Shown here piece after piece: positions 16,039 through 20,333 of a stretch of 37,116 bases of DNA. Within the stretch, counting starts at the first letter, position 1; every line of letters starts with the position of its first letter. The notes beneath the pieces are model-generated. The model was not told where the DNA came from. It ran no database searches and saw only the letters and a program-made list of their open reading frames with translations. Source of the DNA: a virus; UHGV virus genome UHGV-0272165. One strand, given 5' to 3'. The translations under genes and the position numbers were made by a program.

Positions 16039-16205
16039 TGTTGGCTCCGTTTATCCGTTAAAAGGGATATCAGTTAAGTTATCCCGTGTAGGGTATAAGC
16101 CATTATCAAAGCCACTCAGTAAGGAATGGCTTTTGTAATGGCAATAAAAAGCCACGCATATGCGGGCTTGTTGGGTTAATACATCATTGAAAATTTATCT
16201 TTTGA

Positions 16206-16937
16206 TTAATCATTTCGTGTCAAAATCGCATCAATCACTGGCTGAATAGGAAACCCGATGCCAATGCCTGGATTTGCATTAGACTCTAATAATTTTACTA
16301 TAGTGGCTAGTGACTCAGCATAGAGTGAATTAATCCTAGCAAAGTCAACACCACCAAACCTCACATTCACTTGCATATTAGCCAACTCCCTCAAGAGATC
16401 TTTGGCCTGATCAGCAATGGCGTCGGCTTCATCTTTGCCAGGGTATCTTCTCTGCGTGACGATACCCACCACATTCCCAGTTTCAAGATTAACGATAGGG
16501 CCGCCAGAATTACCACCATTTACCATCCCATCGATAGAAAATTTTCCATCTTCAAGCGGCGAAGAGACTATTGCTTCGCCTATTAATAATTGAGGAAAAC
16601 CGTGAGGATACCCAGCAAAAATCAATCGTAATCCCCTGGAAGGGGTGAAATTGGTACAAGGTTGCAATACTACTCTGTCGGGAGGTAATGATTCTGAAAT
16701 GCGCATGACAGCAAAATCATATTGAATATCAACATGAATAATCTGGGCCAAAATATTCTGTCCAGATTCAGTTATTAGAGTGGCCGGGCCAAGTATCCGG
16801 CTATTTTGCAGATCAACCAAGGGTTTTACAACGTGAAAGTTTGTGATCACCAAATCCTCTCGTAAAAAACTAAAACCACTTCCGCAAGATGTACCTGCAA
16901 TGACCTGAAATGTTGCATTGGCTAAGTGTTGATGCAT
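16206..16937 (-). CDS. Trypsin-like (S1 family) serine protease, cytoplasmic, no signal peptide
   Basis: His (ITNFHVV), Asp (DFAVMRI) and Ser (GGNSGGPIV) motifs in S1 order; strong SD (GGAGG 7 nt upstream); lower GC than flanking phage genes. Confidence 0.8.
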   Translation of the reverse strand: MHQHLANATFQVIAGTSCGSGFSFLREDLVITNFHVVKPLVDLQNSRILGPATLITESGQNILAQIIHVDIQYDFAVMRISESLPPDRVVLQPCTNFTPSRGLRLIFAGYPHGFPQLLIGEAIVSSPLEDGKFSIDGMVNGGNSGGPIVNLETGNVVGIVTQRRYPGKDEADAIADQAKDLLRELANMQVNVRFGGVDFARINSLYAESLATIVKLLESNANPGIGIGFPIQPVIDAILTRND

Positions 16938-16994
16938 CGTAATCCTCCGATTCTGGTAAGTGGAATTTCATAATGAACTCATATCCCAGAATAA

Positions 16995-17011
16995 TTGATA
17001 TGTCACATCAA
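16995..17011. promoter_or_regulatory. Operator-like palindrome in the protease upstream region
   Basis: TTGAT-N7-ATCAA inverted repeat (TTGATATGTCACATCAA) in the 98-bp spacer between the 64-aa ORF and the protease gene. Confidence 0.35.
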
Positions 17012-17035
17012 TTCACGCTCGAAATATTCAATACA

Positions 17036-17488
<453 letters not shown>

Positions 17489-17789: not shown

Positions 17790-18257
17790 TCATCGAAGGC
17801 ATTGCGTCCTGATGTATTCCTGAAGCGTTCTCAGTGCTGTTTGGTCGCGGATAATTCCGTCCCGGATATCGAGAACGTTTCGTCCAGCAACTGGAGAGAG
17901 TTCGACGGTGGCATCATTGCCCATGCCGGAGGCGCTGGAGGTTTTGGCTGAGGATGGCACAGGGCATTTTCCTTTGACGAGCACCCTGCCACCATTATCA
18001 AGCTTGCGCCGAAGAGCATCATTTTCAGCTTTCGCATCAGCTAACTCCTTCGTGTATTTAGCATCGAGTGCATCAGCATCACGCTGGCGCTGTTGCATGT
18101 CAGTAATGGTGGCGTTCGCCTTCTCCAGTTCACTGGCCTTGTTATCGCGCTGTTCTTTGTAGGCGATTGCATTATCACGGTAATGATTAACAGCCCATGA
18201 CAGGCAGACGATGATGCAGATAACCAGAGCGGAGATAATCGCGGTTACTCTGCTCAT
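17790..18257 (-). CDS. Rz: i-spanin Rz
   Basis: N-terminal half near-identical to remembered lambda Rz; overlaps the R stop. Confidence 0.9.
17831..18037 (-). CDS. Rz1: o-spanin Rz1 lipoprotein embedded in Rz (+1 frame)
   Basis: Entirely within Rz; lipobox (VAGC) and Pro-rich segment ([11 protein letters not shown]) like lambda Rz1. Confidence 0.75.
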
Positions 18258-19279: not shown

Positions 19280-19355
19280 TGGTGCTGGTTAACGGACTTG
19301 AACCGCTACCCATTCGCTTACAAGGCGACTGCTCTACCATTGGAGCTAAACCAGC
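19280..19355 (-). tRNA. tRNA-Thr (anticodon UGU)
   Basis: Hand-folded 76-nt cloverleaf: 7-bp acceptor stem GCTGGTT/AACCAGC, D-arm GCTC/GAGC, anticodon loop CUUGUAA, T-arm AGCGG-TTCAAGT-CCGTT, encoded CCA. Confidence 0.7.
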
Positions 19356-19360
19356 ATATT

Positions 19361-19435
19361 TGGCGGGACAGCGTGGACTCGAACCACGATAAGAAGGTTA
19401 ACAGCCTTCCGTAATGACCTTTATACGACTGACCC
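19361..19435 (-). tRNA. tRNA-Asn (anticodon GUU), possibly slightly degenerate
   Basis: Hand-folded 75 nt: anticodon stem GAAGG/CCTTC, loop CUGUUAA, T-arm CGTGG-TTCGAGT-CCACG, encoded CCA; acceptor stem has one U-U mismatch and the D-stem is only 3 bp. Confidence 0.55.
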
Positions 19436-19638: not shown

Positions 19639-19667
19639 AATTTACCCAACTTTATTCAAAAAGTCAA
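19639..19667 (-). promoter_or_regulatory. pR'-like late promoter (start of the Q-antiterminated transcript)
   Basis: Minus-strand TTGACT-17 nt-TAAATT just downstream of Q; context matches remembered lambda pR'. Confidence 0.5.
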
Positions 19668-19709: not shown

Positions 19710-20333
19710 TTAACGTGTGACCGCATTCAAAATGTTGTCTGCGATTGACTCTTCTTTGTGGCATTGCACCACCAGAGCGTCATACAGCGGCTTAACAGTG
19801 CGTGACCAGGTGGGTTGGGTAAGATTTGGGATTAGCATCGTCACAGCGCGATATGCGGCGCTTGCTGGCATCCTTGAATAGCCGACACCTTTGCATCTTC
19901 CGCATTCTTTCTCAACAACTCTCCCCCACTGCTCTGTTTTTGCTATATCAACCGCACGGCCTGTACCGTGACAATCTCTGCATCTTGCGCCCGGCGTCGC
20001 GGCACTACGGCAATAATCCGCATAAGCGAATGTTGCGAGCACTTGCAGTACCTTTGCCTTAGTATTTCCTTCGAGCTTTGCCACACCACGGTATTTCCCC
20101 GATACCTTGTGTGCAAATTGCATCAGATAGTTGATAGCCTTTTGTTTGTCGTTCTGGCTGAGTTCATGCTTACCGCAGAATGCAGCCATACCGAATCCGG
20201 CTTGTGATTGCGCCATCCCCATAGCAGCCATCACATCAGTACCGGAAAGAGAGTCAGAAGCCGTGGCCCGTGGTGAGTCACTCATCATCGGGCTTTTTGG
20301 CGAATGAAATTTAGCTACGCTTTCGAGTCTCAT
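19710..20333 (-). CDS. Q: Late antiterminator Q (lambda-type)
   Basis: 207 aa; [89 protein letters not shown]... matches remembered lambda Q. Confidence 0.95.

Follow-up and report, generated by a model that had tools for sequence, protein, structure and literature searches.

A moron carries its own promoter and terminator and forms an autonomous unit that is expressed from a repressed prophage (PMC3594210). Lambdoid morons such as lambda bor and lom and HK97 gene 15 are promoter–gene–terminator units of this kind, placed in late operons. Operator dyads, in LexA boxes, tetO and the lambdoid OR/OL, lie between the -35 and -10 elements or overlap them. At the level of RNA, Davis, Simons and Kleckner reportedly described in 1985 a 'fold-back inhibition' of IS10 transposase mRNA started outside the element, and long-range translational coupling is known from rpmI–rplT and from the coat and replicase genes of MS2.

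Here we examine a two-gene cassette in a 37,116-nt stretch of viral DNA (UHGV virus genome UHGV-0272165), called the window below. Like the lambdoid morons, the cassette is optional cargo: it lies between conserved late genes of phages whose backbones are unrelated, and it has its own intrinsic terminator and an AT-rich leader. Unlike them, it consists of two genes, and its candidate promoter lies between these genes and matches the consensus weakly. The spacer between the genes resembles the promoter-core operators in having a 21-bp dyad with conserved half-sites and a free centre, and a second dyad at about +1. It also resembles IS10 fold-back and long-range coupling, in that a segment found only on longer transcripts is complementary to the downstream Shine–Dalgarno (SD) sequence and AUG and short transcripts are unstructured; as in the long-range coupling systems, the anti-AUG strand is reachable by ribosomes terminating on the upstream ORF. 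In contrast to IS10 and the ribosomal-protein operons, this element is a prophage moron, and the RNA case is purely computational, with few compensatory changes.

We tentatively favour the view that the spacer is a two-level cis-regulatory leader, acting as both RNA and DNA, of a mobile two-gene moron. We regard this as possible rather than probable, and favour it because the DNA and RNA readings each explain features that the other does not.

A two-gene cassette between lysis and terminase genes

The window holds a P22-like prophage in which all genes of this region read on the minus strand. In that direction the Q antiterminator gene (19710–20333) is followed by two tRNAs, holin, lysozyme and Rz (17790–18257), then by the 64-aa ORF and the S1 protease, and finally by DUF2560 orf80, orf59, the small and large terminase subunits and the portal. 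The features of the cassette and its upstream flank are as follows.

17350–17444, minus strand: 95-nt remnant of the right end of an IS100-like element (IS21 family), 90–92% identical to IS100 ends next to istB
17036–17230, minus strand: small ORF (ORF listing), which opens the cassette; 64 aa, against 59 aa in most relatives
16938–17035, minus strand: intercistronic spacer of 98 nt between the 64-aa ORF and the protease
16206–16937, minus strand: cytoplasmic S1 serine protease (HtrA-like, no PDZ), 243 aa (Pfam Trypsin_2, 5e-18)
16143–16168, minus strand: intrinsic terminator AAGCCCGCATATGCGTGGC plus TTTTTATT, which closes the cassette (-11 kcal/mol, z -3.0)

Both flanks of the cassette are common to P22-like phages in the phage collection, and none of these phages has the 64-aa ORF or the protease. 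The existence of flank-sharing phages without the pair identifies it as optional cargo at the junction of lysis and terminase genes. Across many enterobacterial prophages, lambdoid as well as P22-like, the cassette has the same make-up: a small ORF that is usually 59 aa long, some 112 nt of spacer, a cytoplasmic S1 protease of about 245 aa and an intrinsic terminator. Its site is constant, 3' of the lysis genes and 5' of terminase genes of several unrelated types, and its hosts include E. coli, Citrobacter, Klebsiella, Enterobacter, Leclercia and Buttiauxella. Among the E. coli carriers, 19KM1778 and PK6 are 99.8–99.9% identical to the window. We found no paper on the cassette or its protein accessions, and scans of genome contigs and metagenomes gained almost no further spacers.

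The protease, of the trypsin fold, has distant HtrA matches in the PDB and an invariant GNSGGP motif and His35, and it carries an extra C-terminal region of about 80 aa. A tblastn search of 50,697 phage records returned no match to it. Among the PADLOC system models it was matched at domain level only, by the protease part of the retron type XI RT-protease (1e-12) and by a candidate family; the small protein matched none.

The genes of more distant proteases (45–60% identity) have one of three upstream contexts: a diverged homologue of the small ORF (L106, L133), another gene, or a spanin gene directly 5' (L019, L020, L109, L130, L150). Conversely, locus L199 has a diverged small-protein homologue alone (1501–1683), with a hairpin and the gene for the terminase small subunit directly 3' of it, and is without the spacer, protease and terminator of the cassette.

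Variable presence at a fixed site between conserved genes is a moron trait, and so is the cassette's own terminator (16168–16143). A hairpin with a U-run stands 3' of the protease in nearly all related loci, with differing stem sequences. Given this conserved terminator, a moron hallmark, some promoter that is not Q-modified is expected upstream. For the remaining trait, a promoter active in the lysogen, we found only weak candidate sites.

Several minor features surround the cassette. A second hairpin (16108–16133, minus strand), followed by GATAATGG, is also present in L199 and is apparently part of the phage backbone that precedes the packaging genes. Two minus-strand stretches between Q and holin, 19280–19435 and 19639–19667, take in the two tRNAs, tRNA-Thr and tRNA-Asn, and, just downstream of Q, TTGACT-17-TAAATT, at 13.3 bits the top promoter-like site of the entire window and presumably the late promoter pR'. 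The stretch 17262–17349 (minus strand) is what remains, without coding capacity, of an o-spanin gene's 3' end after truncation by the IS remnant. It accompanies the cassette, and in other prophages this sequence closes an intact spanin gene of 65 aa that lies 44 nt 5' of the small ORF. The 220-nt left flank is 99–100% identical among seven aligned loci (L001–L007) whose small ORFs differ by up to 25%, a disparity that suggests recent recombination.

The IS100-like remnant ends in TTGACA facing the small ORF, and IS100 copies matching it are present in thousands of E. coli records. As a promoter upstream of the small ORF we could consider only the hybrid formed at this end, TTGACA-17-TCGCAT (8.8 bits). 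It was rejected: it is without the key A of the -10 and is missing in loci that have no IS remnant.

Conservation and DNA-level features of the spacer

According to the first-pass annotation, the 98 bp between the 64-aa ORF and the protease contain TTGAT-N7-ATCAA, a repeated motif and a near-consensus SD, and the protease would have its own regulated promoter there, possibly controlled by the small upstream protein. The description of the sequence is accurate. The spacer length is exact. TTGAT-N7-ATCAA, at 16995–17011, is the sole match in the window (0.12 expected per window; at least one match in 12 of 100 shuffles). The motif AATTGATGT has two exact copies, one at 17041–17033 that overlaps the stop codon (TGA) of the 64-aa ORF, the other at 17013–17005. 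GGAGG stands at 16948–16944, 6 nt before the ATG at 16937. The elements considered at the DNA level, together with the SD, are the following; counts refer to an alignment of 26 sequences.

17011–17016, minus strand: putative -35-like hexamer GTGAAT of candidate promoter P1 (PWM, 8.4 bits; columns G20 T26 G22 A24 A26 T26 of 26)
16993–17013, minus strand: 21-bp dyad AATTGATGTG-A-CATATCAATT containing TTGAT-N7-ATCAA, with arms matching at 9 of 10 positions
16988–16993, minus strand: putative -10-like hexamer TATTCT of P1 (columns T26 A23 (T16/A6/C4) (T13/G12) C25 T26 of 26)
16968–16982, minus strand: ATGAGTTCATTATGA, the most conserved block of the spacer (alignment columns 78–92, 23–26 of 26)
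16944–16948, minus strand: Shine–Dalgarno sequence GGAGG, its GGAG core present in 25–26 of 26 sequences

Could the palindrome be a chance feature of AT-rich DNA, its conservation reflecting recent common descent and horizontal spread of the cassette? The 37-kb window contains about 13 independent palindromes of the dyad's quality, which gives a chance of about 3% for a given 98-nt stretch, and AATTGATGT with at most one mismatch is not enriched across the window (16 found, 15.2 expected). Many of the related loci are, moreover, close relatives, with a mean column identity of 87% in the alignment. Against this, the mean pairwise identity of the spacer is 0.74 among 26 distinct loci, compared to 0.70–0.78 at codon positions 1–2 of the flanking genes and 0.41–0.57 at their third positions. 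A spacer that stays at this level while third codon positions of the same loci fall so low must be under purifying selection. The dyad itself combines invariant arms with a freely varying centre: the columns of the left arm, AATTGAT, read A24 A26 T26 T26 G26 A26 T26 of 26, and those of the right arm 21–26 of 26; the 7-nt centre exists in eight or more versions, and its length is constant in all 26 sequences. Absence of any specific function is consequently very improbable. The palindrome alone is mildly unusual, and conservation lifts it above chance. Judged by its substitution pattern, the spacer is clearly a selected regulatory region.

The distribution of indels is uneven. There are none from the end of the small ORF to 16968 in the 26-sequence alignment, and four between 16967 and 16951. 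In the most conserved block, the form found in relatives, ATGAATTCATTATGA, is a perfect gap-less palindrome, ATGAATTCAT, overlapping TTCAT-T-ATGAA. A gap-less palindrome of 10 bp makes a useful RNA hairpin impossible, so that a DNA-level site is more likely. The block also contains an alternative -10-like sequence, CATTAT (16975–16970); CATTAT or CATTAA recurs 33–38 nt 5' of the ATG in the diverged leaders L106, L133 and L130, and a positional test of this was non-significant per locus. A conserved -10 ending at about -30 (25–35 nt before the ATG) in leaders that cannot be aligned was likewise set aside as suggestive and non-significant locus by locus.

Over the 900 nt upstream of the protease, a PWM scan with a cut-off of at least 7.5 bits found only two promoter-like sites, both weak: the IS100-end hybrid and the candidate in the spacer, P1 (GTGAAT-17-TATTCT). 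P1, the better of the two, matches the consensus at three of six and four of six positions, and its 17-bp spacing is invariant in the 26 sequences. Its score is at chance level, with 8.4 bits or more reached at 1.8e-4 of background positions, or about 0.1 expected per spacer. A scan for 9 of 12 consensus matches found no coding-strand promoter in the spacer, and missed P1. The -10-like columns (T26 A23 n n C25 T26) are, as far as an alignment can tell, the conservation profile expected of a -10 element. The dyad fills the 17-bp gap of P1; it starts within the -35-like hexamer and extends to the -10-like hexamer, whose first base it includes, and ATGAATTCAT lies at about +1. The dyad would cover a promoter core, as a repressor operator does, only if P1 is a real promoter.

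These observations split the earlier proposal of a regulated protease promoter. The selected regulatory spacer, the conserved terminator and the P1 -10 columns (26, 23 and 26 of 26 at positions 1, 2 and 6) speak for it; the chance-level score of P1 and the negative consensus scan of the spacer speak against it. That the protease has its own promoter in the spacer is plausible.

This proposal can be taken further, to a regulated spacer promoter with the dyads (17013–16993, and ATGAGTTCAT at 16982–16973) as its operators and any RNA complementarity as a by-product. Such an arrangement fits the exact span of the dyad between the two hexamers, the conserved half-sites at fixed spacing around a variable centre, and the gap-less palindrome as the top-conserved block, and moron logic demands a promoter. 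It suffers from the chance-level promoter score. It also gives no role to the two TTGATG copies that stand alone, one at 17039 and one at the start codon, 110 bp apart and nested around the dyad, and it does not account for the occlusion of the ribosome-binding site (RBS) that is seen even in non-homologous leaders (below). We consider it unlikely that DNA-level control is the whole explanation.

To our knowledge, the dyad half-sites have no convincing match to ArgR, Fur, IHF, LexA or lambdoid repressor operators. The closest resemblance is to the FNR box (TTGAT-N4-ATCAA): the pentamers TTGAT and ATCAA are identical, and the dyad centre is at about -40 relative to the alternative -10 CATTAT. 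We rejected a site for FNR or CRP, as the spacing is N7 rather than N4 in all 26 sequences and incompatible with CRP/FNR dimers; nor does the dyad have the spacing of a CRP-type site (TGTGA-N6-TCACA).

Other searches of the region were negative. There is no intrinsic terminator inside the spacer and no U-run after the dyad, and Rfam covariance models gave no match at E ≤ 1 between 16100 and 17900. A hidden mini-ORF starting from the ATG in TTCATTATGA was rejected; its frame is broken by indels and substitutions in relatives.

Predicted pairing over the protease start

The TTGATG/CATCAA sequence occurs in four nested copies, two direct and then two inverted. The RNA fold that these repeats allow, which would sequester the SD and AUG, is not part of the first-pass annotation. 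The MFE fold of the window leader has four helices (-31 kcal/mol, z -2.3), and a relative diverged by about 20% has the same four-helix architecture (z -2.7). The inner hairpin, H3, is the dyad itself (17013–16993). The other paired segments are listed here.

17028–17039, minus strand: 5' strand of the outer helix (anti-AUG), TTGATGTATTGA, with the first TTGATG copy and the TGA stop of the 64-aa ORF; pairs with 16940–16929
17020–17024, minus strand: anti-SD strand TTTCG of helix H2 (5 bp); pairs with CGGAG at 16949–16945
16952–16990, minus strand: helix H4, in which 16990–16980 pairs with 16962–16952
16929–16940, minus strand: 3' strand of the outer helix, ACGATGCATCAA, start-codon region; pairs with 17039–17028

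Across the 26 sequences, 92% of alignment cells are paired in the whole fold. Shuffles reached this percentage in 1 of 500 cases and the covariation score in 4 of 500, and control positions of the fold, slid along the alignment, had 29–51% of cells paired. The outer helix of 12 bp, which appears in the window's MFE fold and again in those of diverged relatives, has 92.9% of cells paired and one compensatory change from G-C to A-U. The corresponding values are 93.8% for H2, where a U opposite G is C in seven sequences, and 95.7% for H3. H4 is the weakest helix, with 86% of cells paired and four pairs changed on both sides. Only six pairs in all are double-changed, true compensatory changes are few, and RNAalifold gives the 26 sequences a weak consensus (-5 kcal/mol). 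With 15 distinct G-U variants and 14 A-C variants there is no excess of the former, so no strand-specific RNA signature is seen, a result to be expected if only DNA mattered. Inverted repeats in DNA automatically give complementarity in RNA, and the two levels are therefore hard to separate by computation.

Accessibility of the protease start provides an independent line of evidence. We computed the energy needed to open positions -15 to +5 and compared it with controls in which the upstream sequence was shuffled. For the window protease it is 12.0 kcal/mol, versus 7.8–8.5 kcal/mol in shuffles (p 0.02–0.07). It exceeds the shuffled controls in 8 of 15 loci, including L106, L130, L019, L020 and L150, whose leaders cannot be aligned. 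The same test on 12 other genes of the window found significant occlusion in none, with no p below 0.15. Short transcripts from the candidate starts are nearly unstructured (-6.2 and -3.5 kcal/mol, z +0.8). In the coding sequence, codons 2–3 of the protease are CAT CAA in 25–26 of 26 main-group sequences, while synonymous CAC/CAG are used in other groups.

One interpretation of these patterns dispenses with a spacer promoter. The protease would be made from the late transcript alone, in an amount set by the structured spacer: the long-range helix would close the RBS, ribosomes finishing the small ORF would open it in a coupling at a distance, and the palindrome would be simply a hairpin. The nested complementary segments do cover both SD and AUG, occlusion is found in unrelated leaders and not in control genes, and the promoter-like sites are at chance level. 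The position of the anti-AUG strand also fits: it starts 10 nt beyond the stop codon in the 59-aa form of the ORF and includes that codon in the 64-aa form. In the diverged leaders L106 and L133, a UGCAU about 10 nt past the stop is kept. Yet the conserved cassette terminator would be pointless if only antiterminated polymerase read the gene. Nor does this interpretation explain the near-invariant ATGAATTCAT in a loop, the total lack of indels in the loops upstream of 16968 or the missing excess of G-U over A-C variants, and long leaders persist in relatives that have no small ORF at all. In the RNA model, the block with the highest conservation in the spacer falls in a loop. Control by RNA alone thus seems rather improbable to us.

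The two-level leader that we prefer draws on both sets of observations. A function at the DNA level explains why there is a terminator, why spacings are fixed and why the TAnnCT pattern and the gap-less palindrome exist. One at the RNA level explains why the repeats are nested, why the leader is complementary to both SD and AUG, why the synonymous sites of codons 2–3 are invariant and why RBS occlusion recurs in unrelated leaders. Under this model the leader would set protease expression independently of the surrounding phage late operon, with both levels using the same TTGATG/CATCAA repeats. On late, Q-antiterminated read-through mRNA, the computed fold would pair 17039–17028 with 16940–16929 and TTTCG (17024–17020) with the SD, and the dyad would form the inner hairpin that closes a multiloop, leaving the protease RBS occluded. 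On DNA, a weak sigma-70 promoter is predicted in the spacer (GTGAAT-17-TATTCT, 17016–16988), with the dyad and ATGAATTCAT as putative operators; the dimeric factor binding them would probably be other than the 64-aa protein. Transcripts from P1 would be without the anti-AUG and anti-SD strands and almost unstructured, and may be the only ones translated efficiently.

The small protein and possible roles of the cassette

The small ORF is a coding gene by its substitution pattern, with an identity of 0.76 at codon positions 1/2 versus 0.57 at position 3. It has 76 homologues, all in enterobacterial prophage contexts. The protein has no match in Pfam, PADLOC, PHROG or NCBIfam, is acidic (net charge about -2) and contains no HTH, RHH, AbrB or Phd-like domain. 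A first AF2 model built from six sequences was too poor to use (pLDDT 62.6). The model from 43 sequences (pLDDT 85) is a short helix with a long beta-hairpin, and it matches no solved fold, DNA-binding or other.

These properties tell against the suggestion of the first-pass annotation that the 64-aa protein controls a protease promoter. As a specific form of DNA-level control, repression by this protein is extremely unlikely in our estimation. Beyond the charge, the missing domains and the lack of a fold match, it has against it that the palindrome lies downstream rather than upstream of the protein's own gene, and that each of the two cassette proteins also occurs without the other. The cassette contains no other candidate for a cognate sequence-specific DNA-binding protein; a host factor or another phage factor is possible. 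The same points bear on the resemblance to type II toxin–antitoxin loci. Like these, the cassette pairs a small gene with a larger one behind it that encodes an enzyme, and its locus contains a palindrome. Unlike them, it has the palindrome between the genes, its small protein is without an antitoxin-type DNA-binding domain, and either gene is found alone.

The end of the small ORF differs between the window and most relatives. A run of six A residues (17053–17058, minus strand) replaces the A5 of most relatives and extends the ORF from 59 to 64 aa. Through the extra A the stop, which in the shorter ORF immediately precedes the first TTGATG copy, comes to lie inside that copy and so within the anti-AUG strand. 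This could alter translational coupling between the small ORF and the protease. In terms of the two-level leader, with the A6 run (17058–17053) placing the stop inside the anti-AUG strand, terminating ribosomes could open the fold and couple the two genes.

What the cassette does for its carrier is a separate question. It may be a defence or immunity module. A more detailed version, which we consider distinctly unlikely, is a prophage defence or self-immunity module in which translation depends on the transcript, shielding the lytic cycle from the phage's own protease. In a lysogen the weak spacer promoter would give a short, open mRNA and only the cytoplasmic protease would be made. After induction the late read-through mRNA would yield the small acidic beta-hairpin protein while the protease RBS is shut. 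The small protein would then be a candidate inhibitor or partner of the protease.

The palindrome region is an ordinary kind of cis-regulatory element, and the moron that it controls is uncharacterised. The palindrome matters as a marker of the control region of this widespread moron. The first step towards the function of the protease is to find out whether cells produce it as lysogens or late in infection, and whether the small partner accompanies it. In addition, the spacer is a compact system in which to test whether a moron can guard against read-through translation as some insertion sequences do.

Two minor observations concern the small ORF. A palindrome, TTTTTTCAT-C-ATGAAAAAA, at 17221–17241 is centred on its start codon and is not conserved in relatives. 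In E. coli PSS-11 (NZ_AP027694.1, locus L007, 1657–5567) the small ORF is flanked by two IS3-family copies, one of which splits the protease gene and leaves a truncated 'serine protease'; in this strain the cassette is inactivated.
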